A stretch of DNA of 62,971 nt, counting the filler, from Rhabdomonas costata (Eukaryota), in NCBI GenBank assembly GCA_019059605.1. It is 31 parts of 31 records of this genome, joined end to end, with 100 filler letters (N's around TTAATTAATTAA, not from the genome) between each part and the next. Parts side by side here need not be neighbours in the genome. Positions count along the whole stretch, not along the records: positions 32,552 to 34,486 come from JAHMHO010007226.1; positions 34,587 to 36,520 come from JAHMHO010007227.1; positions 36,621 to 38,554 come from JAHMHO010007228.1; 28 more parts are not named here. One strand, 5' to 3'. The position numbers and the translations under genes were made by a program. This document shows, piece by piece, positions 3,970-53,222 of this stretch. The notes under the pieces are model-generated. The model was given only the letters and a program-made list of their open reading frames with translations. It searched no databases and was not told the DNA's origin. How positions within the stretch are numbered: the first letter of the stretch is position 1; each line of letters starts with the position of its first letter.

Positions 3970-4217
3970 CNNNNNNNNNNNNNNNNNNNNNNNNNNNNNN
4001 NNNNNNNNNNNNNNTTAATTAATTAANNNNNNNNNNNNNNNNNNNNNNNNNNNNNNNNNNNNNNNNNNNNGTGTTTGTGTTACTATTTGTTGCAATTGCC
4101 TTGCCTTTCTTGCGGACGCTGAACACTCTATGCGCTGCTCTTCATTTTTCTCCAACTTGGGGCATTGACTGCTTTAAAAGGAAAAGTTGACAATGAGCAG
4201 GTAGGCAAAGGCGATAC

Positions 4218-5990
4218 CCTCATCCAAGTTGACCAGCTTCCCAATAATTTTGAAGCGGTTGTAGATCTGCTCCTTCTGGGGATTCCCATGGGCAGTAATA
4301 AATCTCCTCAGCAGAGCTAAACTTCCAGAGGTCGCCCGCCTTGTTCCATCCATCACGTCAGCGGGGATTTGGATCGTCATCACCAGATTGTATCCCGAAG
4401 TCTGGTCACTGGACAGCATCGAAGGACCGTAGTCTGGAACCATGAAGTTCACCACAAAGATGTGGGAGCCATCTGCAGATCCCAGTCCCAGGGCCATGGC
4501 AACGTTTGTCGCCTTCGAACTGGAGCGCAGCAGGTTCACCGCGATAACGTTGCCCAGAGCAGGACCAGAAGGAGCCTTCAACTTGGCCTTCTTGTAATCC
4601 GGCCCTGTCCGAACACTGAAGCAGCTGCTGTTCATCAGCGACCACGCCTGACTGGGATGAGAAGCGTCAATAGAAGCCTGAGTCAGAGCACCTTTTGATG
4701 AGAGAAAAAGAACAGGAGGTGGAGGTGGAGGTGGAGGTGGTGGTGGTGCTGGTGGTGGTGGTGGGCTTGCCTCCACGGCAACGGAAGTTGCGGAAGGCGG
4801 CTCCAAATCCGAGGGAGAAAACTCGTCGGTGCTTTGCATGGCACCAACGCCCACAATGGTGACGGTGGTGTCTGCTGTTAGCGAGTCGACCAATGGGTCC
4901 ACCGAAGCAAATTTTTCATCAATCTTGAGGTCTTCGTCGGAAACAACAACTGAGCAACGCCGGCTGCTCTCCTTCGAGGGGAGCTCGTGTGGCGGTGGGG
5001 TGTGCGAGCTGTCAGAGTCCACCCTCTTCCCGATAGTGATTAGCACATCCTCACCTGCAGAAGGATGCTCACGGTGTTCCTCTGCACTCTCCACGGAAAG
5101 GCGAGGCGCCGAAGGAGGGGATGTGCCATTCTCCCCAACTACCGCACAACAACGGAGTGGCATGGAGGGACTAACTCCCACCGAGGAGGAGGAAGTTGGC
5201 GTCGCAAACCCACTCGCTGAGGAGACCCGAGGAGACCTCCAGTTTGCGGGCTTCCAGAGATTGGGGGAGGGCACCAGCTGCAAGGACTGCAGCCTAACAC
5301 AGCCCAGCAAAACCTCAGGCAGCTCTTCATCAGAGCGTCCCTCGATGATAAGACCGAGGTCTACTTCAGGGAACGGCATCCCCCGCTTAAGAAAGGCTCT
5401 CCAGCCTTTGCGAGCAATGACTCCAAAGCTGTGAACATCGATGTCAATTTCCGTGTATGCCGGCCCGTGGAAGAACAGATGCTCAGGGGAAGTGAAGACG
5501 GGCTTTCCATTATAGGTTGTAAAAAGCCCAAACTCGGTCCCACTCAGCTTGTATCCCACGGGGCTGGAGAGCCGCCCGATCATTTTCAACCGGCGATGGA
5601 TTTCCGAGCAACCTGTGGGGTCATCGATGTCATTAATAAACTTCCACAACAGAGACAAACTCCCGGACAAGGCTTCGCTGGCACTCCGCAAGATTTGCTC
5701 AGAAATTCCCATGTACACGACGAGACTGAGACCAGCGCCGTCCGAGGCTTTCAGGCTGGGAGCGTAGGTAGGAAGCATGAAGTTGATCACAATCATATGT
5801 TTTCTGCCCTCAATAGGCTCCGCTTCAGGAGGAAAGCCCACGCGGGATACGATGTCCTTCACCTTGGAAGGGCAATGAAACACCTCGACAGCCAAGATCT
5901 GAGTCAGGCACCCCTGGGACGGAGCTTTTAGACGATGCTTCTTGTAATTCGGACCCTGTCTGACATGAAACGAGGAAGCAGGTAAGGGAC
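4218..5990 (-). CDS. Protein with two tandem EDR2_C (DUF1336) domains separated by a Ser/Pro-rich linker; one long exon, partial
   Basis: The ORF is open from the contig edge. Two copies of F.VR.GP.YKK.+LKAPS (SSFHVRQGPNYKKHRLKAPS; SCFSVRTGPDYKKAKLKAPS), each followed by 'V(I/V)NFM.P.Y.PS' and 'R(L/F)K.IG'. The first copy ends with YTEIDIDVHSF and LIIEGRSDEELPEVLLGCVRL. GT donor at 4217. Confidence 0.8.
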
Positions 5991-8694
5991 ACCATACCCA
6001 ACCCCNNNNNNNNNNNNNNNNNNNNNNNNNNNNNNNNNNNNNNNNNNNNTTAATTAATTAANNNNNNNNNNNNNNNNNNNNNNNNNNNNNNNNNNNNNNN
6101 NNNNNGGTTGTGGGGGTGGTCCTGAAACCGGTCTTTCTAATGCGGTGAACTGTTAAACACGTGTAGTATTAACAGCATTTTGTCTTCATTTTCTGAAAAT
6201 AAATTGTAAAATAATACATTGCCAATGCACCCATACAAACGCCACCCAACAATGTACTCCACACAGACACACCACTGGAAATCTTTTGAAACCCTGCAAA
6301 ACTCAACACCGAAGCTCACTCAACACCGGGTACAGTGTGTTCGTGGGTTGTGCGTTTGTGGGTTAGGTAGTAAGTTGTTTGCTTGCGTTCCTGGTTCCTT
6401 GGGTTGCTATGCGTTCTGTCTGTGTTGTACTAAGCTTCATTCGCTCCCGGTAAGGCTCGGTGTGGTTTGAGCTTTATTGGTGGCATTGATTTCGGTCGTG
6501 TTCAAGGGTTCGATTTGCGTTCTGGTGCCTTCATTCTTGTTTGTTGGATTTATATGTGGGATGGTTGCTTGTTCGGTTGATGTTGCTGTGGTTGTGGTGC
6601 CTATGTGAGTTTCGCTTGTGTTGCGGTACAACGCGTGTTTCTGGTGCCTTGTGTTCTTTTGGTGTCGTGGTGGCTTGTGTGGTGTACGCAGCGCTTGGGT
6701 CACTGTTGGGTTGTTGCGTGTCGTCGTGATCGTGGTGATGGTGGCATGGTTGGGATAGCTCATGGTGGTGAGTCCGGGGTCACTGCTGCTTGGCCTAGAT
6801 GTGGCATGGTTGGTGCTAGGTAGTGCATCGTGGTGTGTGGTCTGCTTCATGCTGGCTTGTGTTGTGTTGGGTCTGCTTGGGCTGTGTTGGTACTCTTTTT
6901 GTTCCGGTGTTTTTGTTTGCGTTTGAGTTGTGTGGGCTGTGTGGTGCGTTGGGTGAACCACTGCGAGATCTGGTAGCAGTGCTGGGTAGGTGGTTTATGT
7001 CGACAGGCGCTGGGCCTGCGAAACATACCGTCTTGGACAAAAAACGCACACAGACACACACAAACATGTGGTAAGCGATTGACACAGCAATCACACTCCC
7101 GGTAAAAAGTGGACCGCAAACAGTGTTGTAACCGAGCAGTCCATGACTGAACAATGTGTAATAGGCGCTGTACATAACATTGGAGATGATCATGGTGCAA
7201 AGCGGTACAATACCAGAAGACAAGCAAGGCGAGGTAGAGGGAACTTTTACAAACGAAACGTTGCAAATACCGTACAGATGAATGCGACGAACTAAAGATG
7301 GTTGAAAAACATGAAAGGATGGCATTATCACGATGAAAACTGAGACAGAACGATTGCAAGGAAGTAAGAGGGCACTAAAAAGCACAATGCACGGAGAACA
7401 GAGCACAGGAGTTATCACCAGAGCATGGCAACCGTCAGCCGAAGAGTCCACCACGGTGTGTGCTAGCATCGACACAACAGGAAAAACGTTTTCCAAGGTC
7501 TCAGTGGCTATACCTACCGATGAAGTACTGGCATCAGTTGCAGGTCTGGATGAAGCATCAGTGGCAGTGACGCAGTCAATCAATCAAATGCACAGAGAGC
7601 AAGAACTCGAACCTCACCACAATGGCGCTACGAAATGTCATCCCATAGAGAACTGGCCTGCTCTAGCGCGGACTTCTTCCGAAAGCGCTCCTCTGTGGAC
7701 GGCTCAGCTGTATATATCTACCGAGGCTCATTGCATCCACGTGTGATGCGGGCTCAAGGGTCGCCGATGATCCCAAAGAGAACCGGTTGGTAGTCTGGGA
7801 CATAAGACCACATACAACATACCACAGAAACCGTCAATACACTCCAAAACAACCCTCAAACTCTACATAACCACACCCACCGACTCACTTCCCACGCTAT
7901 CCAGAACACCAAGACAACACACGTCACCACCACATTGACCCACACAGACCTCCACTCCACAGCACTCCACAACACCGACCACACCATTTACCATACCTAC
8001 CAACCCAACAACCTCCAACACCAGATCCACCAACGCCACCNNNNNNNNNNNNNNNNNNNNNNNNNNNNNNNNNNNNNNNNNNNNTTAATTAATTAANNNN
8101 NNNNNNNNNNNNNNNNNNNNNNNNNNNNNNNNNNNNNNNNGTGGTGGGTGTGTTTGGGGTGTGGTGTGTGGCGTGAGTGGTCGGCACGGTTTTGGAATTG
8201 TGGGTGTACGTGTCAGGGGGGAAAGAGGAGAGGCAAAGTTGTGCGTGTCTGCATGCGCAGTGTTGCTGTGTGGGTGCTTCTCGTCGCTGTGTGGTTTCAT
8301 GTGTGCCTGTGCGGCACAGTGGCCGTTTCTGCACTTTGTCTATGATCGGGGTTGTTCTTCTTTCGCTCGCCATGCTCCCTTTGTTTTCTCCAAAAAGGTA
8401 GTGCACTGCGAGGTGTTCCATTTAAATTCCAAGATAAAAGATAATGAATTTTGAATATGAAGAACATGAACTGTATATGACCTGTATATACTAAAGACCC
8501 CAGGCCTGCTTCGGCTGCCCTCAAGAGACATGAGTTTACAGATAATGAACTCCATTTTATTCTGGCTTTGGTATAAGGCTCTGGCCCCCCAGATTGCCAT
8601 TTTGTATGATGGGGGTTTGGGGCTGCTTTTAGTACGAAAACCGAATCAAACTGAAGGGGCAGAAATTGTTACCAGTCTCAAGATGACTTGTTAC

Positions 8695-10036: not shown

Positions 10037-10379
10037 GTCCCGCCCACACACCCACATACTGAAAACCCTACTCTGGNNNNNNNNNNNNNNNNNNNNNNNN
10101 NNNNNNNNNNNNNNNNNNNNTTAATTAATTAANNNNNNNNNNNNNNNNNNNNNNNNNNNNNNNNNNNNNNNNNNNNGGAGAGGGGGAGTGTTGTAATACC
10201 AATGGCACTGTTTTGGGTGCCGCTGAGGAAACGTGAGAGAGCGCAAGTATCGCAGATTCCACCGGTCACCATAATTCGCATTCTGAAGCTTTTGTTTTGA
10301 ATCAATTTACACCTCACGTTTTTTTTTACACCCCACACCGACCGCAAGCACTTTCGCATGCACACACACACGTACTCAC

Positions 10380-14137: not shown

Positions 14138-17100
14138 CCCAAAAANNNNNNNNNNNNNNNNNNNNNNNNNNNNNNNNNNNNNNNNNNNNTTAATTAATTA
14201 ANNNNNNNNNNNNNNNNNNNNNNNNNNNNNNNNNNNNNNNNNNNNGGGTTGTGGGGGGCTCATTGTTTCTTTCCCTATCCGTTTGTGTGCGAATACGCCC
14301 ATCGTTTGCTCGTGTGAACCTTAGGTTTTTTAGACTGCTGCTCCCAGAATAGCCGCTCGTAGTTTCTGTACGCCTGCCTGTGAGTTCTGTTATCCTTCAT
14401 CTGTCGCGGTATTGGAGTTGGCAGTGGTGCTTTTGGGCTTCTCTATGGTCTTCGTTCCTCGGGCTTCGGGATCCCGCGTTTCCAACTTCAAAGTACTCAG
14501 AATCGTTTTGTCTGACGTCTCCTATAGTTTCCCCACGGGTGGTTTACCATGATTATATGTTCCGTTGCTGACTCCTGCTACTGCTAGAACTTTTGTGCCG
14601 CAGTGATCAAACTTTTTCATTTCCTATTCCGTAATCTCTTCTCACTCCTCCCAGTGCACCATACTCTGCCTCAGCCCGTCTTCGTTGTGGGTTATCCTCG
14701 AATAACGTTCCCCCATGCCCTCCGTCTCTCTCTTCGAATCTCTCTCCTTACGCTGCTGTAGGGTGCCAGCGGTTTGGCCTGCATGCGTCTGTGGCTGGGC
14801 AGCTGAGCCGTCGCTGGAAGTGAGTTTGCTTCGGCTTCACACCCGTCCTCCTCTCTGTACGTTTGGGGGTCCTGGGCCCTTCTTCATCTGCCGAAGCAGG
14901 AGTTCCGTTCCCTTCTCTCCCTTTTCGCAAGGGTTGTTTTGAAACTCCCCCTACTGTTGGTCCCTCTCCGCAAAGGCGATCTATCCACTGTCTTTAAAAA
15001 AGTTGCAGTGGTTTCTCCTTCTGTATTTTTACCAGTTTATCGGCCTGCCTGCTCTGTGCTGACGGTGACGCTTCTCAGGTCCCTTCCGGAGACCTTCAGA
15101 CACCCTCCACCATTCGGGCGCGGTCTGTGCTGCGGCGCCTGTACCACTCCGATCCCTGCCTGGCGTACTGCGCTAAAGCTCTTCCCAAGCACCTGGGTCA
15201 GGGTTCACCAGGATGCAGTCCACAGACTCCGCAATTTTCCGAGACCGCCGGAAAAACGACAGCTTCCCCTCCAAAGCCGAAGAAAGCCCCGAAGTTGACC
15301 CGGAAGCAGATGCAAAAGTAAGCGCATGTTCCGTGCCCTGTTTCTACCCGAAAAGTGGAGTAGTCGTTTATTATTTGCGAAAGTTTCCTTGCGGTTTGAT
15401 CTCCCAAAATTAGCAAAATATCGTTTGACACTACGTGCAAACTCTCTGTCTCGCTCACTGGCTCTTGCAACGTGTGCTGCTTCACAGCCTTTATCCATTT
15501 CCTAACCCCCATGGCTGTAGGCGTTTTCTTTGACGCGGGACAGCACTCCCAAACGACTTGCAGTGCGCTGGGATGCAGACTCTCATTTTGCTGTGTGGGG
15601 CAGCAGAATTAGCAGAAGCGTTTTTTTGTTTTGCGCTCATAGAGATCCTAACTCTAATATTTAATACCCCGCGCACATTGGGGCTTGCTGTCGTTGTTCT
15701 TGTTGTGTCTTTAACAACAGGTTCGCAAACATAAAGTTGCAACCCTGAACTGCAAGGCAACCCCTCACCTCCCCCCTTTCCAACTGCACCACTATAAGGA
15801 GTGAAGTATGCTCATTTCGCAGTGAGGGGAATGCCATTAAGTGCCGAAACAAGCACCGGTCGACCATCCCCGACCATCCCCAAAATACTGAGGGAGGGAA
15901 GTGATATCGCCTTCTCATTCGTTCGGGGCTTACCCTCTGCGGGGCTCCCTCCCCCAAAATTGCATATCATGTGTCTGCCCGCACCGTCCATCACTTTGTG
16001 GGTTTCTATATATTTTTTTTTGCATTATCAGAATACAGCACTGGCGTCACAAAACAATTATTGCGGTCCAGGCAAGGTTTCGCATTAAGCGGAACAGGAC
16101 AGCGTTGATACGGTATCGCCACCCAACCGGTATGCGCTGGCGGAAGGGACTCACCCCCCAAACCACACACACCCACCACANNNNNNNNNNNNNNNNNNNN
16201 NNNNNNNNNNNNNNNNNNNNNNNNTTAATTAATTAANNNNNNNNNNNNNNNNNNNNNNNNNNNNNNNNNNNNNNNNNNNNAGGACGGAGCATCTACCAAG
16301 GAATGGAGCAGAGAATGGAAAGGGATGGCAAGGTCTTGGGATATTCTAATGGGACCACATTTTTTTTTGGCAAAAAGGCAAAATTGCAGAACTGGACGGG
16401 GTGTGGGGGTGAGATGAGGGCAGGTTACGCTCTACTGTGCAGTACCAGTCCTCTTCCCAACAATCATCCCATGAGCTTCCCACTCCGTAGACCACTCCGT
16501 GCATCTGCATCTTTTGACATATTCAACATGCTTTCTTGAGCACGACATCCCTGGTGGCAGAGGACCAGTTGGGGCCCATCCGGCCGCGGTGAAGGGCGCT
16601 GGTGGTGTGTGTGTGTGGGGGGGGGTGATAAAAAAGGTGGTAGCGGTGGTAGGGAGAGGAATGCAACAAATGGCTCTATGCGCAAAGCGTTTGAACGCAC
16701 GCCAGCTCTCTGTGCCAAGTGTTCCTAGTGTTCCAAGCGTCTAACCAGAACCGGAACGTACCAATTCGCCGGCTTTTATCTCTGACGGTTGCTCCTTCGT
16801 CCATGCACGAAATCATGCACGCACGGGAGGGGAACAAAAACCACCAAAAGGGGACGCCGGCAGCGCAACAACGAACTTGTGCTCGACAGCGAGAGCGCAA
16901 GTCATTTTGTGCCGCGGGGTTCTAATTCGGTCCAGTACAGAGGCCACCTGTTCTCAACCCCCGCCATTAGACGCCCCATTAGATGCAACACGGATTCGAC
17001 GTCTGGGATGGACCGCAAGCGTGACAGATTTGGCTCCGCGTATCGCTCCCTGAGCACGTGAACCTCCGCCTTATCTGCAATACTGAGAACTTCAAAAACG

Positions 17101-30511: not shown

Positions 30512-32412
30512 GAAGGGCGGGGGGGTTCGCAGCTGCAATGGGTGGATGCCTTTCCTCCCGATTGCCACGCCAACGCGAGTGCAGGACACCAGTGTCATGC
30601 GGAGACTTCGGTGTTTCTTGTCGTAGCGGATACCTTTACTCTCAGCGAGGATTCCGTTGCCATCTTTGGGATGTGGGGCAAACGGAGGCGGCAGCCTTTT
30701 GAGAGGTTCCATTCCCACCTCCCTGCGCTGGACTTCCGTGCTCTGTGGCGCACTGAATCACAGGATCCCCGTGCTGCCGCTGCCTTTGTGACCGCAAGTG
30801 TATACATGATTCGATTCTTCGACCCCTTTAACTGGTTTGAAGCGGTGTGTCGCTGGACCACACCCGTGTTTCCTCCCCGCTCGTCGACCTACATTACTAT
30901 CAAAGGTGTGTCCTGTGAACAATATTTTCCAGATTTTGCTGTCATCTTCTTGTTTGACGTAGGGACAGTTGTGTCTGTGTATTCATGGGAACCTTCTTAA
31001 CTCGCATCACTGTGTTTTCTGGCGCGTTTGATGCACTGTTTCGATCAGTACTAAGAGAGCTAAGCCGAAGCAGGACTAGAGTCTGTGTATGCAGCAGTCC
31101 TGCCAAACCGGCCGGTCGTTTCCTGACCTTTCACCTTTAGCCGGGAGTAGTCTTTCATATCTATACACTTACATCTCCATATAGATATAATAATAAATAT
31201 AATAGTAAATCTAAAGTATAAAAGTAAATCTAACTCTATTTACATCTATTCTTGCCCTCAGCGGAGGTTTATGGCAGCACCCACAACGCGTTTACAAAAC
31301 AACCCCAAAGGAGCTCGGTAACTGGCTCTTGGCCGCCTGCAGCCCACCAAAATAAATGTCATCTGCATCACTGCTTCACTTTAACCCCGCGTTTACGAAC
31401 GTTCTGTAAAACGTGGTGACCGGCCAAATATAACTGTTTTTTCCTCTCGTGGTTGGTTCTTTCGCTGTCACTCAGGACGTCAGCATTATGTGGATGGATG
31501 GACGGACGAGTTTGACTGCTTGTTCACTTGATTTTTCAGGATCAGCGGTTGTGAAGAAAGTTCTGGTGCGGGGCTTTGAACCCAGGCCGGAACCGACGTC
31601 GGGACTCGCGCTTTGCCTATCGCAGTTTCACAATGAGATCTCGGAGCGTGTCCTCGTGGAGTTTCTCGAGTATTACAGAGCTCTCGGCGCCACCGAGGCG
31701 CTTATCTATGACTTCGACCTTCGATTTCACATTCTCAGGTAGAAGCCAGGTCAGGACGCAGGCTGCGTAGGCTAGTGAACTAATTGGCTATATTTTGGCG
31801 GTCTCATTTCATTAACCCTAAATAATTTTCATGTGTGTCGGAAGAAAGTATTTTGCCTCAGGTTCGTTTTGCCTGGGGTGGACTGCCTCTTGAGCCCTTT
31901 AAATTGCAAGATGTCTTGTGGGCGACGATTAACGCTTGGACTTCCACCAAACCTAAGCTCATGTGCAAGCGGCCCGGGTCCAAGCCCGAGGAAGTATGTG
32001 GCACTGTGCAGCGGAAATAGCTCCGCACAGAAAATCGAGCAGACGTGCACGCAAGAACAGTCATACTCTTAGTGCGCCGTTGTAATTCGGGGTTTGCTTT
32101 TTGCACAGAAGCCAAAAAGAAGAATCGCTTTCCCTATTCGGTATTCTCGAGATGTGTTTCTCTTCCGTTTTGCGGTGTGCCAAACTGGAAGGCACTTTCT
32201 CTTCTTTCCAAATCCAAGCAGCTACTCAAAGTCATCGCAAGTGTTCTTCCGTCTCCAGAGTGGCCCGCGAGTACCAGAGGCGGCGAAAGTTCCGCCTCAC
32301 CCTGCTGAACTGGGCCCCCGTGCAACGCTACCCCAGCTACTGCCGCGGGCAAGTCCTGGCCCTCAACGACTGCTTCACGCGTGCGAGGCGCACCTCACGG
32401 TACCTTCTGCAG
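30512..32412 (+). CDS. Glycosyltransferase family 92 (DUF23) protein, 3 exons, partial
   Basis: Exons ..30905, 31540-31738 and 32259-32412 are in phase. LALCLSQFHNEISERVLVEFLEYYRALGATEALIYD and LLNWAP..YCRGQVLALNDCFTRARRTSRY match the GT92 motifs 'C..P......EW.EY...LG.....Y' and 'Q.....DC..R'. Confidence 0.8.
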
Positions 32413-32422
32413 GTTTCAGTGT

Positions 32423-32451
32423 TGTGTGTGTGTGTGTGTGTGTGTGTGTGT
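32423..32451. repeat. (TG)n microsatellite at contig end
   Basis: Read directly from the sequence. Confidence 0.95.
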
Positions 32452-34204: not shown

Positions 34205-34639
34205 GTACCCCACGTTTTTTTCCCCTGCAACGCGTTTGATTTTTTCGCTTCGACGACCGCTGCAGAAACTTTCATCTGCAGCAACCATTCCCAAAACAGA
34301 GGAGAGGCTGTTGCTTCAAATTGTATGCACCACACTGGTTGTGGCTGTTATTCAAGTTTCTGCGTATTTGCCTCCCTATATTGGTTTCCATCACTTTTGT
34401 CGAGAAATTCTACACCTGTGCTTCGTTTTCCAGATGAGCGGTGAGGTGTTCTTTGTGTGTAGGGACCCCGCGGCCCCGGGGCGGTTNNNNNNNNNNNNNN
34501 NNNNNNNNNNNNNNNNNNNNNNNNNNNNNNTTAATTAATTAANNNNNNNNNNNNNNNNNNNNNNNNNNNNNNNNNNNNNNNNNNNNGTGGGTGTTGTATA
34601 TACTTAAATATATAAATTATAGATATTTACGATATTGTA

Positions 34640-34675
34640 TTTTATATATTTTAAATTTTTTTTTGGTATATAAAA
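34640..34675 (-). terminator. AT-rich hairpin 3' of ORF 34727-35032
   Basis: TTTTATATA (34640-48) pairs with TATATAAAA (34667-75). Confidence 0.45.
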
Positions 34676-34726
34676 GTTACGGCATCTGCAAGTTTGCCGT
34701 AAGAACAAACGAAGAACCGTTCACAG

Positions 34727-35032
34727 TTAGTTTGTTTTTAAGCTTCCGCTTCCCTGGCCGTCAGCACGTTCCGAAAGCGCATTTCGTATGTCATCAGTTT
34801 CTGCACGAAGCGCGATAACATCCTTGAGATGTGCCAGTTTATGAATGCGCCTGTACTCCTCCAACGCATTCTTGGTGTGGGTCGACCCGTGAGATCCTAT
34901 GTACAGGATGCGAATGTCTGTTGGTGTTATTCCTTTCGGTATGTACTCTTCCAACACAAAATCAGGAAACATCGTTTGAATCTCCAAGACGATTCCCTTT
35001 TCTGTTCTGGCCTCCACTGTTCTGTGTGCCAT
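34727..35032 (-). CDS. Hypothetical protein (101 aa), paralog of 35384-35869; virus-like cassette
   Basis: Intronless ORF in an AT-rich context. Shares EI..MFP...L......I.P.D...LY.G..G......A.EEYR..H.L with its neighbour. Confidence 0.8.
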   Translation of the reverse strand: MAHRTVEARTEKGIVLEIQTMFPDFVLEEYIPKGITPTDIRILYIGSHGSTHTKNALEEYRRIHKLAHLKDVIALRAETDDIRNALSERADGQGSGSLKTN

Positions 35033-35076
35033 TTCTTTACTCAGTGAATCTGTTGTTTTGTTAAAGTTTTAAAAGC

Positions 35077-35109
35077 CGTCGATTACTACGCGCATACTAT
35101 GATCTAATA
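35077..35109 (-). promoter_or_regulatory. Conserved upstream element copy 1 (TATTAGATCATAGTATGCGCGTAGTAATCGACG)
   Basis: 33/33 identical to 35898-35930; lies 44 nt upstream of ATG 35032. Confidence 0.7.
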
Positions 35110-35288
35110 CAATATATAAGAGGTTTACAATAATTGATTTTTTCAATTTTTATTAATGCACAAAATCAAAATTATCTTCTTATACAATATACTCGATTCA
35201 ATCTTGATTAAATGCTACTTTTACATTTTCAGGTATCCTTGTGATTGCAATAACTTAATAAAATAAATTTTTTAGTTGTAAAATATAA

Positions 35289-35324
35289 TTTTTATATATC
35301 AAAATTATTTTCGGTATATAAAAA
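35289..35324 (-). terminator. AT-rich hairpin 3' of ORF 35384-35869
   Basis: TTTTTATATA (35289-98) pairs with TATATAAAAA (35315-24), with an inner AAAAT/ATTTT stem. Shares GGTATATAAAA with the 34640 hairpin. Confidence 0.5.
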
Positions 35325-35383
35325 AGTCATCACCAACCTGTGATGATCCACCGAAAAGCACAGCTCAGACCAAAAGGAAAAAT

Positions 35384-35869
35384 CTAGTGGTTAGAACTGT
35401 ACAGTTTCTTTTGTGCATCCACAAAGTCAGACCATGCAGCCGCTGCTCGAAAACGAAGATGATAGAACTCGGTAAACTGAAATGCACGGAGTGCAAGTCC
35501 GTAATTCTCGTCACTAGCAGATTTGAGTACAGCAGCAACCGAATCTTCCGTCAAACCATGAAAACATCGATATTCTTCGATTGCATCCGGTAAACCACTT
35601 AATCCTTGCTTTCCTCTGTACAGCATGACGAGATCTTCTGGTTTGATATCGTCGTGAAGATCATCACTCAACTTGAGCTTTGGAAACATCTCGTGGATCT
35701 CAACCATGAAACCTTCATACTTGGCGAATGCCTCCTTCGCCATTTGTGCTGATGCAGTTCTTTGTGCTTGTGCAGCACTTTGTGCTGGCGCAGAGCTTGA
35801 AGCTGAACCAGATTGCAGCATGTTTGGATTCCCACGACGAGATGAACGAGTAGGACGAGTAGGAGGCAT
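35384..35869 (-). CDS. Hypothetical protein (161 aa), paralog of 34727-35032; virus-like cassette
   Basis: Intronless ORF with the same core motif, the same upstream 33-mer and a downstream hairpin. Confidence 0.8.
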   Translation of the reverse strand: MPPTRPTRSSRRGNPNMLQSGSASSSAPAQSAAQAQRTASAQMAKEAFAKYEGFMVEIHEMFPKLKLSDDLHDDIKPEDLVMLYRGKQGLSGLPDAIEEYRCFHGLTEDSVAAVLKSASDENYGLALRAFQFTEFYHLRFRAAAAWSDFVDAQKKLYSSNH

Positions 35870-35897
35870 CTTGTTTTTTTGTTGAAGTCTTGAAATT

Positions 35898-35930
35898 CGT
35901 CGATTACTACGCGCATACTATGATCTAATA
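35898..35930 (-). promoter_or_regulatory. Conserved upstream element copy 2
   Basis: 33/33 identical to 35077-35109; lies 28 nt upstream of ATG 35869. Confidence 0.7.
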
Positions 35931-35962
35931 ATAATACAATTGTGTTAATTGTGCATTGTTCA

Positions 35963-36010
35963 TTATTAAATATATCAACATTATCAAATATATCATCATA
36001 TATTTAATAA
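35963..36010 (-). terminator. AT-rich hairpin 3' of ORF ending at 36025
   Basis: 13-bp perfect stem TTATTAAATATAT (35963-75) / ATATATTTAATAA (35998-36010). Confidence 0.5.
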
Positions 36011-36024
36011 AAAATAAATATATT

Positions 36025-36478
36025 TTACCAGTTTCTACCTGGAATATCACCAGATCCACCGGCTGGATCTTTAAGAATCATACCAATACTTCTTTCGGTC
36101 GGTTCACCGTAAAATCTGCTCCCGTCCTGTCCCCATTGAACACCACCACCACTGACAGCTAATCTGCGAGCACCTAAAGTATAATTAATATTATCTTTAT
36201 CTAAAAGAATAGGTCTATTGTCAACAAGAGCTGTTTTACTGTTTACACGTAAAAAATTTGTAGTTACAGTATCAGTAACACTAGCACTATTAAGAGTTGC
36301 ATTATTATGTGCGACAATAGTATTTGTATCTATGGTATCAACATTTAAAGTACATATACTAGGATTTGAACCACTAGGAGCAAATGTTATTTTTACCGTC
36401 ATCACCGAAAGATTGTACATAAGAAATATTATTAGGTATGTTATTAAATGCTACATAACTAGTAGCATAACTTAACAT
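36025..36478 (-). CDS. Asn/Thr-rich fibre/structural-like protein, probably frameshifted at the T5 run 36390-36394
   Basis: Very AT-rich codons. The upstream frame MLSYATSYVAFNNIPNNISYVQSFGDDGK joins ITFAPSGSNPSICTLNVDTIDTNTIVAHNNATLNSASVTDTVTTNFLRVN..GRNW* if one A is removed. Confidence 0.5.
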
Positions 36479-36626
36479 ACGTGTATTATCAGATAAATCT
36501 TATTGTGCGGCATCACAAACNNNNNNNNNNNNNNNNNNNNNNNNNNNNNNNNNNNNNNNNNNNNTTAATTAATTAANNNNNNNNNNNNNNNNNNNNNNNN
36601 NNNNNNNNNNNNNNNNNNNNGTTGGG

Positions 36627-36736
36627 GTGGTTGGAAGCCAGCCGGACACTCACAGAATAATTGTCCTCTTCAGGGGACTCTGGGGCTGTTTAAAGAGGAC
36701 AATTATTCTGTGAGTGTCCGGCTGGCTTCCAACCAC
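36627..36736. repeat. Terminal fold-back inverted repeat (44-bp arms 36627-36670 / 36693-36736)
   Basis: Perfect arms at the contig start. Confidence 0.9.
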
Positions 36737-39133
36737 ACCGGCGCGAACACAGCAGTTTTTGTTTGTGTGGTGTCTATGCGCTTGTATGGGCAATGGCGAC
36801 AGGTCTTGCCACCATCAGAATCAGAGAGACTTTTGTGGGTGTCCTCTTTGTAGCAGCTTGCCTTCGAAGCAAGTCGGGATGAGCTTTTTGAAGACCACTT
36901 TTATGATTAGGTGGGCCCTAATGTTTTTCCTTCTGCTTGTGCTTGTTTTTATTGACCGTTTGTTATCGGGAAGGAGGGGGGGGCTGGTTATAGTATACTG
37001 CAGCGCATACGCCCAGCCGCCCGCAGACACCCGCCCATTGTCACTGCTGAGGAGACCAGCATCGTGTGCAGGGGAATGTGTTCGTCTGTGGGGGGACCGC
37101 GTTTGGACTTTGGTGACTGCACTCGTCACGCGGTGCCACAGGTGAGCCGGCACACGCTTCAGAGATATTGAGCTGGTCGAAACGGGGAAAGCGAAGGAAA
37201 GCGGTCTTTTGTTCTCCTGGGGATGTGTGATTTAACCCTCTGGCTAAACCGACCTTTCCCGGTAATTCGTTTTATTGGTGATAAACATGGGGAAATATGA
37301 GAAGTTTGCCTCTTCCGGAAATTCCTCCCCGATGCCTGCACCCGTGGTAGCACTTTGTGCGGACCCGAAGCTTTGAACTCGTGCGGTTGAGGTTCTCCGC
37401 TTGCAAAATGACCAGTTTTTGCCTTCGAATTTTGTTCCCATACCCAACGAACGTGGCTGGAGACCTACCCGATGCCCGCCCCTTTGTGCCACAACACGGG
37501 CCCAGGGTCGGGCACCCTCCGCATCAGCCGTGTGCGCACCACGGGCAACACCCCCCCCACTTGACGCGCGCATCGGAAAGGGCAGTTGGAGAGACGGGGC
37601 AGGCTTAGCTTTTTGGAATGCGTCCGCTTTATTTTTTAGTTGAAACATTCATTGAAACTCTCATTGTTGCCGGCGCTGTTGCCGCGCCCATCCATTTTCA
37701 AAGCGCTTTCTCGCTGGCCTTGGTTGAGGCTTTTTTATTTTTCAAACGTTTGCCCCCCCTAAAAGTCCTGCTGTTTAGTTTTGGCAGAGTCACCTCGGAA
37801 AAAACCCGCGTCCGAAATGGCTTTTTTAAAACTGGTAACTGGATGGGCTGCGCCCCCCGAGGGAATCGGGGTAAAAGCCATTCTTTCTTCCTGGAGGCAC
37901 TGGGGAAGCACCCGCGCGGAGAAAGGGGGCCAAAACATTGGTTAGGCGGGGCCAAAACTACTCCTTTATCCTGGGTTGCGCTTGGCTTTAACTCTTTGTG
38001 CGCCCTTTTGGTGGTTACGTTTAGTTGCTTCCTCTTGTTTTGTTGTTTTCCCCTTCTTTTTCAAGGCCCAAATGGGCTGGAGAGCAGGGGAAACCACGGG
38101 GCAAAGCCCCAAGAAAATTGGGTTATATGTTCGTGCGCTCAAAATAAGGTGTTTGTGTTTGGGGTGGGTTGGTGTCGTTTGATCTTTAATATTTTTTGTT
38201 CATTCGCCAATGTTCTAATTTCCACAACCGGGAGAAAACTGAACAGTTACGACCTACGCTTCGCCGCTTTGCGGGTGTGGCGTCGCGCCCGCGGGAAGTT
38301 AGAAATACATAAAGGCGTCGTGTGGGGGGCTCCGCCTGGCGTCCTACCCCCACATGATAAAAATACTTCATTTTCCTTGGCCGGTCGGGTCGAACGCTGC
38401 GATATATAGTTCTTTTCCATTTTGAATATATGACAAAGCTCGATTTTAAAATGCACTTTTTAGGGTCAATAATTCCCCAGCTCGAACCCCCCTTTCCCAC
38501 ATTGGGTCAATGTTGACTTTTATGGTAGGCTGGGTGCCCCATTGTGTAACAACANNNNNNNNNNNNNNNNNNNNNNNNNNNNNNNNNNNNNNNNNNNNTT
38601 AATTAATTAANNNNNNNNNNNNNNNNNNNNNNNNNNNNNNNNNNNNNNNNNNNNTTTTTGGTGGAGGCGTGCCGTCATACGATGGGCTGTCCTATGTACT
38701 CCTTCCCCCGTATTCTGCATCACACAAGGATCTCTCCGCTCAATTGGGCGCGCGCGGGAGAGGACACACAGTTTCACCGGAAGGTACGCGGCTTTTTGGG
38801 GTGCAAGCAGGCACGCACATCTATAGGTTCCCTGCTTCACCTGAAGTCCGAAATATAGCAGCTGTTAGCACGGTAACGCCTTTTTGGAATATCGTCTGAC
38901 AGTAGGTCACTCCAAGCTTCTCCGGTTTGGAACTTCCGCGACTCCAACCGAAAGCAACCGCCCTCCACTTGATCATAATTAACGTATGCTCTATTCCTAA
39001 GTGGTTTGTCTGCTTTCAGTTTGAAATGAGCCCGACATTGAAAACTTTGCTGCGCGCTTCGCCCTGGCAATAAACCATGATTTGCCAGCATCCGCTCCTG
39101 GGTCCCTGTTACCACGCTCACACAATCGCACAC

Positions 39134-52803: not shown

Positions 52804-53222
52804 ATACCNNNNNNNNNNNNNNNNNNNNNNNNNNNNNNNNNNNNNNNNNNNNTTAATTAATTAANNNNNNNNNNNNNNNNNNNNNNNNNNNNNNNNNNNN
52901 NNNNNNNNTGTGGTGGGTGTGGTTGGTGGTGTGGTGCTGCTTACCAAGGTACGATGGAAGAGATGGTAGTCTTTTTCTGTGGTGGTTGCTCGCTACTGTT
53001 GCACGCGCATCTTTGTTTTTTGACGACAGATGGTTGGACCGCGGAAGGTTGCGGCGGTTCTTCGGATGACAGTGCTATTGGCCCTCCGTGAGAGCGCCCA
53101 GGCTGTGAGCGTCTAAAGTTAACGGCAGCTTTTGTTTTCATCCAGAATCTTTTTCGCATGTGTGTCCTTCCGTTTTTTATCCCACGAACAAACAACCGCT
53201 GGGTTCCAACTCTTTGCCCCAG

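Follow-up and report, generated by a model that had tools for sequence, protein, structure and literature searches.

Among the short contigs that make up the window analysed here, a stretch of 62,971 nucleotides, the contig at 34587-36520 stands out as foreign to most of the assembly, a conclusion supported by its base composition, CpG content and gene layout. It carries three small orphan genes on one strand, two of which are diverged paralogs with flanks that are far better conserved than their silent sites. Tentatively, we infer that this is non-host DNA and that its likeliest source is an unsampled, AT-rich virus of eukaryotes with a double-stranded DNA genome, or a virus-like episome, co-amplified with the host. 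The odds of an AT-rich cellular source are almost as good as those of a viral one.

The window consists of 31 small contigs of 1928-1955 bases each, artificially joined, as is apparent from a 12-base linker that recurs 30 times, and positions 34587-36520 correspond to exactly one of them (1934 bases). Its GC content is 36.2%, compared with 44.8-56.5% in the 30 other contigs. The number of 100-nt windows with less than 30% GC is 55 in this contig, compared with 12, 7 and 1 in three others and none in the remaining 27. By these two measures it is the sole compositional outlier of the 31, as a sequence-only reading of this DNA had claimed, and its ratio of observed to expected CpG (1.08) is the highest of all. 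The wider claim of that reading, that the contig differs from the bulk of the assembly, is also borne out by the gene layout: the minus strand carries all three ORFs, which cover 1188 of the 1934 bases (a coding density of 61%), with a GC content of 36-47% within ORFs and 21-28% in the spacers, which span 155-351 nt. Comparison with the rest of the window by blastn returned nothing, and the best non-self tblastn match had an E value of 0.025 over 42 aa. Translation with genetic codes 4 and 6 gave no better ORFs in this contig. In a neighbouring contig, a frame open over 609 aa contains two EDR2_C domains, and its nearest Atlas clusters are all eukaryotic.

The ends of the contigs are informative about the type of sample. 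A run of at least 7 bases made up of G and T only opens 20 of the 31 contigs, whereas 2.5% of internal heptamers are of this kind, and a run of at least 7 C/A-only bases closes 21 of them. These tails look like remnants of amplification primers, and would then be non-native bases left in the deposited assembly. A telomeric interpretation of the G/T-rich left end of contig 34587-36520 was rejected, since ends of this kind are found on most of the contigs and are oriented as primers would be. Given these tails, where a contig ends has no biological significance, and no host junction is visible on this contig because its ends are defined by primers. They also suggest that the DNA was amplified from a small input, a setting in which other organisms are likely to have been sampled too; a passage of one published account makes co-sampled viruses plausible in material of this type (PMC9102663).

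The features identified on the contig are collected in Table 1. ORF1 and ORF2 share 23 of 70 residues (33% identity, E 2e-12), and their nucleotide identity at first, second and third codon positions is 0.53, 0.64 and 0.34; third positions are saturated, and the pattern is that expected of coding sequence in which silent sites have reached saturation. Preceding the domain common to both, ORF2 has an N-terminal extension of 42 aa that is basic and rich in Ser, Ala and Gln, part of which is encoded by an 18-nt repeat (2.8 copies, 35743-35793). The proteins encoded on the contig are hydrophilic. Models of the ORF1/ORF2 pair produced by AlphaFold2 are all-helical with a pLDDT of 48, which is too weak to use, and a Foldseek search of this low-confidence model against PDB and BFVD gave no match at E ≤ 0.001. 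The pair would belong to a fast-diverging orphan family whose small proteins are probably helical. The motif I-x-P-x-D...L-Y-x-G...E-E-Y-R in these proteins has a ubiquitin-like look; Pfam gives no such match, and the resemblance was set aside.

Codon usage differs sharply between ORF1 and ORF2 on the one hand and ORF3 on the other, with GC3 falling from 0.49 in ORF1 to 0.36 in ORF2 and 0.18 in ORF3; ORF1 and ORF2 have an overall GC content of 46-47%. The contrast between GC3 in ORF3 and its GC1 (0.44) and GC2 (0.47) amounts to strong coding periodicity in an AT-biased genome. ORF3 would be an orphan unrelated to ORF1 and ORF2, and its codon usage is far more biased towards AT. Because its start is overlapped by a 34-aa ORF in a different frame (36374-36478), a frameshift may be present in an A5 run, at about 36395. 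The sequence-only reading had described an Asn/Thr-rich, fibre-like ORF: a mild enrichment of Thr, Asn and Gly is present (11% Thr, 10% Asn), but the term ‘fibre-like’ found no support. AlphaFold2 modelling of ORF3 alone was again too weak to use (pLDDT 31).

Table 1. Features of contig 34587-36520, with positions in the window.
Feature	Position	Strand	Description
ORF1	34727..35032	-	101 aa; orphan, paralog of ORF2; GC1/2/3 0.53/0.39/0.49
ORF2	35384..35869	-	161 aa; orphan; GC3 0.36
ORF3	36025..36420	-	131 aa; orphan; GC1/2/3 0.44/0.47/0.18
ORF1 leader/promoter candidate	35051..35109	-	59 nt; invariant box 35077-35109; folding z +1.55
ORF2 leader/promoter candidate	35872..35930	-	59 nt; invariant box 35898-35930; folding z +1.91
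ORF1 hairpin	34677..34702	-	24 nt past stop; 8-bp stem, 10-nt loop (minimum free energy structure)
ORF2 hairpin	35327..35346	-	37 nt past stop; 7-bp stem, 6-nt loop; then CTTTTTTATA
ORF3 hairpin	35981..36010	-	All-A/T; 15 nt past stop; z -1.38, not significant
ORF1 conserved 3' flank	34638..34675	-	T-run and 11-nt core GGTATATAAAA (+ strand, 34665-34675) adjoining hairpin
ORF2 conserved 3' flank	35286..35323	-	Same 11-nt core, 35313-35323
G/T-only run	34587..34597		11 nt; contig start; probably untrimmed amplification-primer tail, not native
C/A-only run	36514..36520		7 nt; contig end; probably complement of primer tail

The similarity of ORF1 and ORF2 continues outside the coding sequences. 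Exactly two copies of a 33-mer are present in the window, one before each of these genes, where none would be expected by chance; the repeated upstream motif of the sequence-only reading is thus real. No further copies with up to 3 mismatches occur in the window. Because it was not found in the 93 nt available upstream of ORF3, the box is family- or class-specific and not a general promoter. On the minus strand it lies 44 nt before the ATG of ORF1 and 28 nt before that of ORF2, and the intervening stretch is A/C-rich, unstructured and devoid of ATG in both cases. The two 59-nt leaders are identical at 53 positions (90%), including 33 of 33 within the box, and as RNA they fold worse than 191-199 of 200 shuffled sequences.

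On the other side of the genes, the 3' flanks of ORF1 and ORF2 are identical at 31 of 38 positions (82%, E 6e-4). Both paralogs are followed by a hairpin and then a T-run, and neither is followed by AATAAA or an intron. The ORF2 hairpin fits an intrinsic-terminator-like pattern, from which the ORF1 hairpin deviates only by its longer loop; the ORF3 hairpin has neither a T-run nor the conserved 3' core. Hairpins had been proposed 3' of the genes, and one does occur within 40 nt of the stop codon in all three, but the stems are short and the folding z-scores (-1.4 to -1.8, with 9-20 of 200 shuffles folding equally well) are individually not significant. Conservation of the flanks of ORF1 and ORF2 exceeds neutral expectation. 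That the leader and the 3' motif have been kept despite saturated third codon positions points to constrained cis-signals of single-gene transcription units; with two copies only, identity of the box could also be explained by gene conversion.

Searches gave no relatives for any of these sequences. Pfam, PHROGs, NCBIfam, PDB, IMG/VR and scans of metagenomes and prokaryotes yielded nothing significant for ORF1-3, and for none of the three was a relative found among 1.84 to 5.8 billion proteins. A HMMER search with an ORF1/2 profile against 1.84 billion proteins gave no credible relative; one match at E 6.9e-5, to a 1311-aa protein, was discarded as spurious, involving 5 short stretches of leucine-rich-type repeats. 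Word searches returned 389 candidates for ORF2, none at E ≤ 0.01, and 6 candidates of similar length plus 466 longer ones for ORF3, none of which was confirmed. ORF2 had no usable match in the Atlas, and pattern scans for related loci gave 93, 22, 159 and 60 matches, of which tblastn confirmed none. Among phages and plasmids, blastn found nothing significant and ORF2 had no tblastn match in phages; prokaryotic or phage families and DNA gave nothing at E 0.01 or better, and no prokaryotic relative of ORF3 was confirmed. The upstream box is similarly isolated in public DNA: its 33-mer and a 19-mer of it had no matches in IMG/VR, a 25-mer none in metagenome contigs, and a 22-mer none in the genomes of 185,579 prokaryotic species. 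No tRNA, rRNA or other RNA gene was identified on the contig by ARAGORN or by Rfam, whether at gathering score or at E 1. Matches of the ORFs to cellular or bacterial families had been named beforehand as a finding that would count against a viral origin, and none was obtained. Lack of recognizable relatives is typical for genes of viruses that infect poorly sampled protists.

Taken together, the conserved flanks suggest how genes on this contig might be expressed. The contig may be organized as autonomous single-gene transcription units, in which we infer promoter, leader and terminator roles for the conserved flanks. The invariant 33-nt box would act as promoter and start-site element, with transcripts starting near its 3' end to give a 28-44-nt leader that is A/C-rich, unstructured and free of AUG, a property that would favour translation from the first AUG. 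Past the ORF, a short G+C-containing hairpin and then the T-run in the 11-nt core could bring about transcript ending or processing. An elaborate form of this proposal is that the contig derives from an undescribed double-stranded DNA virus or episome of a poorly studied eukaryote that has its own transcription machinery, a long 33-nt promoter/leader box, a hairpin plus U-tract stop, and a fast-evolving orphan family that is possibly directed at the host. We regard this fuller version as rather unlikely; if true, it would place signal logic of a bacterial or T7-like kind inside a eukaryotic host.

Several other sources can be considered for this DNA. The contig might be nuclear DNA of another AT-rich, gene-dense eukaryote, co-amplified from a symbiont, parasite, prey organism or contaminant; ORF1 and ORF2 would then be a lineage-specific tandem pair with conserved untranslated regions. 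A coding density of 61% with AT-rich spacers of 155-351 nt is a better fit to a compact eukaryotic genome than to a virus. The ORFs need no genetic code other than the standard one, the leaders lack an AUG between the box and the start codon, the N-terminal extension of ORF2, being basic and hydroxyl-rich, may resemble a targeting peptide, and an amplified low-input sample makes co-sampled cells likely. However, the paralogs lack AATAAA and introns after them, all three ORFs are without relatives in the protein collections searched, and the large spread of GC3 between neighbouring genes is left unaccounted for. A hairpin with a T-run is not known as an RNA polymerase II 3' signal. On balance a second eukaryote is an unlikely source, slightly more so than the self-transcribing virus outlined above; its presence in the sample, as that of any second organism contributing cellular DNA, would be relevant to assembly cleaning.

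The hairpins with T-runs would be intrinsic terminators if the contig came from an AT-rich bacterium (endosymbiont or contaminant) or from its phage or plasmid, in which case the 59-nt repeat would be a regulatory or repeated intergenic element. The ORF2 hairpin passes the intrinsic-terminator pattern and that of ORF1 nearly does, and phages often carry small orphan ORFs that share one orientation and lack introns. For ORF3 there are faint tail-fibre-like matches to phrog_4465 (E 0.046), a PDB tail-tip protein (E 0.83) and two Pseudomonas phage records (E 0.05), but all of these are below significance. The failure of NCBIfam, of blastn against phages and plasmids, and of the 22-mer in prokaryotic genomes to give matches argues in the same direction, as does the lack of a convincing ribosome-binding site before any of the three starts and of a -35/-10 pair common to both boxes; a sigma-70 scan gave 13 sites, compared with 8.4 ± 2.8 in shuffled sequences. 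A coding density of 61% with a gap of about 20 points between coding and spacer GC is also unusual for prokaryotes, and we consider such a source improbable. An organellar genome, an organelle-associated plasmid or an unusual AT-rich island of the main organism seems a little more improbable again. Many protist mitochondrial DNAs are AT-rich and have co-oriented orphan ORFs, conserved short promoters and 3' hairpins, and two host contigs contain AT-rich patches of 100-200 nt. Against this stand the absence of tRNA, rRNA and respiratory-chain genes and of any Rfam match even at E 1, the hydrophilic proteins, the 46-47% GC of ORF1 and ORF2, and the lack of sequence shared with any other contig of the window; reading TGA as Trp lengthens none of the three ORFs. 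A kinetoplast-minicircle interpretation was dropped on account of the protein-level paralogy of ORF1 and ORF2.

If the source is viral, as we tentatively prefer, the contig would represent an unsampled virus lineage associated with the source organism, and the 33-nt box would provide a probe for the rest of its genome in the assembly and reads. The sequence-only reading had noted that no hallmark gene was in view, and none is present among the three ORFs. No ORF matched any Pfam family above its cut-off, the Nucleocytoviricota hallmarks (double jelly-roll capsid, A32-type packaging ATPase, B-family DNA polymerase, D5 primase-helicase and VLTF3) included, and none matched virophage or Polinton-like genes (major and minor capsid, ATPase, cysteine protease, protein-primed polymerase and integrase). 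With 1.9 kb in view, the lack of giant-virus hallmarks reveals little about the genome from which the contig derives. A single copy of the Mimiviridae early octamer (PMC4402537) is present, at 35143-35150 on the minus strand, and 10% of shuffles have as many. Other viral motifs were not enriched, two having no copies and two being at or below expectation; the late-promoter core of virophages and Polinton-like viruses has one copy where 4.5 are expected. For a viral source, the gene-expression signals would look unlike those published for giant viruses.

The contig can be compared with several known systems. It resembles virophages and Polinton-like viruses in its small, co-oriented, intronless ORFs and in being AT-rich relative to the host, but differs in lacking capsid, ATPase, protease, polymerase and integrase genes. 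Its coding density and spacers of up to 351 nt make it looser than these viruses, with a density well below theirs, and looser than giant viruses, nearer to a compact AT-rich eukaryote. With bacterial and phage intrinsic (Rho-independent) terminators it shares a short G+C stem-loop and then a T-run on the coding strand; unlike their usual setting, there is no ribosome-binding site, shared sigma-70 promoter or prokaryotic homolog, and the length and AT content of the spacers are well above the usual. Long, invariant promoters are known from self-transcribing elements, in the form of promoters of T7-like single-subunit polymerases and poxvirus-type promoters. The exact box of tens of nucleotides before separate genes, together with a hairpin/U-rich stop, is similar to such units as an analogy of layout only; here there are two copies, both before paralogs, and the contig shows no gene for a polymerase. 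Published passages on AT-rich cytoplasmic viruses, which use structural or poly-U 3' signals instead of AATAAA, mention poly-U termination for poxviruses (PMC4402537). The same passages describe a ‘hairpin rule’ for mRNA 3'-end formation in Mimiviridae and Pithovirus, and the contig is like these in being AT-rich, with a candidate hairpin about 40 nt or less after each ORF and no AATAAA (PMC4402537). It departs from Mimiviridae in lacking any of their genes and any enrichment of the early octamer, and its hairpin z-scores fall short of significance. Moreover, hairpins in Mimiviridae and Pithovirus are described in those passages as not conserved in sequence (PMC4402537), whereas the stems of 7-8 bp found here contain G+C and are accompanied by a T-run and an 11-nt core common to both paralogs.

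The window divides at 30 copies of the linker TTAATTAATTAA (12 bases, with N runs on both sides) into 31 unrelated contigs, each of 1928-1955 bases. The segment that the sequence-only reading had described as virus-like, here the target contig, is exactly one of these (1934 bases), and therefore the sequence adjoining it in the window is not its genomic context. That reading had set its composition apart from the rest, and the measurements agree: its GC content is 36.2% compared with 44.8-56.5% across the other 30 contigs, and 55 of its 100-nt windows fall below 30% GC, against 12, 7, and 1 in three others, where such patches are short, isolated AT stretches, and zero in the remaining 27. At 1.08, its CpG observed/expected ratio exceeds that of each of the other 30 contigs. 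No sequence common to the target contig and other contigs of the window was found by blastn, and the best non-self tblastn match reached E 0.025 over 42 aa. The co-oriented ORFs with AT-rich spacers are likewise confirmed, as three minus-strand ORFs (47%, 46%, and 36% GC for ORF1, ORF2, and ORF3) with spacers of 21-28% GC. Relative to the bulk of the assembly, the target contig is foreign. Another contig of the window served only to represent the DNA of the main organism; it is nearly all one open frame of 609 aa, with two EDR2_C (PF07059) domains (E 1.6e-55), a long proline run, and a GC3 of 0.59, and the Atlas clusters closest to it are eukaryotic without exception.

Positions of features along the window.
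Feature	Position	Strand	Details
Target contig	34587-36520		
G/T-only start of target contig	34587-34597		11 bases
C/A-only end of target contig	36514-36520		7 bases
Further end-run examples	8141-8171; 52909-52936; 10084-10110 region; 14152-14180 region		
ORF1	34727-35032	minus	101 aa
ORF1 3' hairpin	34677-34702	minus	downstream of stop, 8-bp stem
Mimiviridae early octamer	35143-35150	minus	upstream of ORF1
ORF2	35384-35869	minus	161 aa
ORF2 3' hairpin	35327-35346	minus	downstream of stop, 7-bp stem
18-nt tandem repeat inside ORF2	35743-35793		2.8 copies, 81% match
ORF3	36025-36420	minus	131 aa
34-aa ORF	36374-36478	minus	frame other than that of ORF3
609-aa frame, another contig	4174-6003	minus	
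Contig with (GT)n microsatellite	30512-32451		right end, at least 33 bases
Inverted repeat, contig next to target	36621-36740		arms about 50 nt, short loop

At least seven G/T-only bases open 20 of the 31 contigs and at least seven C/A-only bases close 21, with 13 contigs carrying both. These end runs are typically 10-11 bases long, and internally G/T-only heptamers occur at 2.5%. 'Self-inert' amplification primers are made of G and T only. The end runs look like primer tails that were left untrimmed in the assembly, from the degenerate, non-self-complementary primers of commercial whole-genome amplification; the existence of 'self-inert' primers for whole-genome amplification is stated in an excerpt of the review PMC9102663. 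If they are primer tails, the DNA was low-input and amplified, and the contig ends are artificial, so that neither telomeres nor integration junctions can be read from them. Co-sampled viruses, symbionts, prey, and contaminants would then all be expected, and the priors on the source of the target contig shift. One contig is an exception to the pattern, ending in a (GT)n microsatellite without a C/A tail. In the contig next to the target, a long near-perfect inverted repeat directly follows the G/T tail; it may represent either a chimera formed during amplification or a foldback element.

The ORFs of the target contig are real genes. ORF1 and ORF2 are paralogs, with 23/70 residues identical (E 2e-12), and in their shared block the nucleotide identities at codon positions 1, 2, and 3 (0.53, 0.64, and 0.34) indicate purifying selection on the protein together with saturation at silent sites. 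ORF3, with GC1/GC2/GC3 of 0.44/0.47/0.18, has the strong coding periodicity of an AT-biased genome, and its codon usage differs sharply from that of ORF1 and ORF2. Alternative codes (TGA as Trp; TAA/TAG as Gln) improved no ORF. Because the beginning of ORF3 overlaps with a 34-aa ORF in a different frame, a frameshift is possible in the run of five A where the two frames meet; both close within the target contig. ORF3 may contain a single-base error from sequencing or amplification, in which case its true start would be at 36478 and its length ∼150 aa. The 18-nt tandem repeat in ORF2 encodes a Ser/Ala/Gln-rich part of an N-terminal extension that is missing from ORF1.

ORF1 and ORF2 are orphan genes in well-defined single-gene units, with a 33-nt box upstream and a hairpin plus T-run downstream. 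Stretches of 59 nt shortly upstream of their ATGs agree at 53/59 positions and include the box, identical at 33/33; this is the repeated upstream motif noticed earlier, exact in its two copies, with no others in the window even at three mismatches (0 expected). The distance from the end of the box to the ATG is 44 nt for ORF1 and 28 nt for ORF2. On the 3' side, each hairpin is directly followed by a T-run that lies inside a common 11-nt core, and the 38-nt stretch containing this core is 31/38 identical. These flanks are far better conserved than the saturated coding sequences, and are constrained cis-elements or, given n = 2 copies, may have arisen by local gene conversion. The leader RNAs are unusually unstructured (z +1.55 and +1.91; 191/200 and 199/200 shuffles fold at least as well), A/C-rich, and free of ATG from the box to the start codon. 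An ATG is present inside the box itself, so that, if translation relies on 5' scanning, transcripts would be expected to start no earlier than the 3' part of the box; with such a start, the box would act as a promoter and start-site element. For ORF3, the box was not found in the 93 nt of upstream sequence present in the contig, and an all-AT hairpin stands alone downstream without the T-run core. The signals therefore mark the ORF1/2 family, or a single expression class, and are not a property of every gene.

All of the ORFs are orphans by sequence. None of the three passed threshold against Pfam (best E 0.034-0.19), PHROGs (best a tail-fibre family with ORF3, E 0.046), or NCBIfam (best E 0.051), and PDB sequence searches gave a best E of 0.11. 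A word-indexed search of 5.8 billion proteins returned zero matches for ORF2 among 389 candidates and zero for ORF3 (6 candidates of similar length and 466 longer), and ORF2 had no usable match in Atlas. With a profile of ORF1/2, full HMMER against 1.84 billion representatives matched a single entry (E 6.9e-5), a 1311-aa repeat protein hit over five short stretches and judged spurious. Structure prediction gave only low-confidence models, with a pLDDT of 31 for ORF3 and 48 for the all-helical ORF1/2 pair, and Foldseek with the latter model found nothing in PDB and BFVD at E ≤ 0.001. No RNA genes were found in the target contig.

Several sources might account for such a contig, and a eukaryotic dsDNA virus or virus-like episome is the one towards which we tentatively lean. 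The three ORFs occupy 61% of the contig, a coding density below expectation for giant viruses, virophages, and Polinton-like viruses; gene spacing is best fitted by a second, AT-rich eukaryotic cell, an unlikely source but one with a real share of the probability, which leaves the hairpin and T-run signals unexplained. A bacterium, phage, or plasmid would suit hairpins that look like intrinsic terminators, but it is improbable, with zero prokaryotic homologs or DNA matches, no ribosome-binding site before any of the three starts, and a conserved box that lacks a common −35/−10 pair. Against an organelle or host island, quite improbable as a source, stand the foreign composition, the hydrophilic proteins, and the lack of tRNA or rRNA genes and of a code-4 signal.

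Positive evidence of a viral source was not found. The 33-nt box is absent from IMG/VR, JGI metagenome contigs, and 185,579 prokaryotic genomes, and when IMG/VR, metagenomes, and prokaryote genomes were scanned for protein patterns, the 93, 22, 159, and 60 matches included zero that could be confirmed. The early octamer of Mimiviridae, as the motif is quoted in an excerpt of PMC4402537, occurs once, a count that 10% of shuffles match, and the other virus motifs counted in the target contig are at or below expectation. The 3' hairpins of the sequence-only reading hold as stem-loops downstream of all three ORFs, but they are short and none is individually significant. In this they differ from the 'hairpin rule' of Mimiviridae and Pithovirus, as excerpted from PMC4402537, which they resemble in lying after stop codons; they are at least as similar to bacterial intrinsic terminators.
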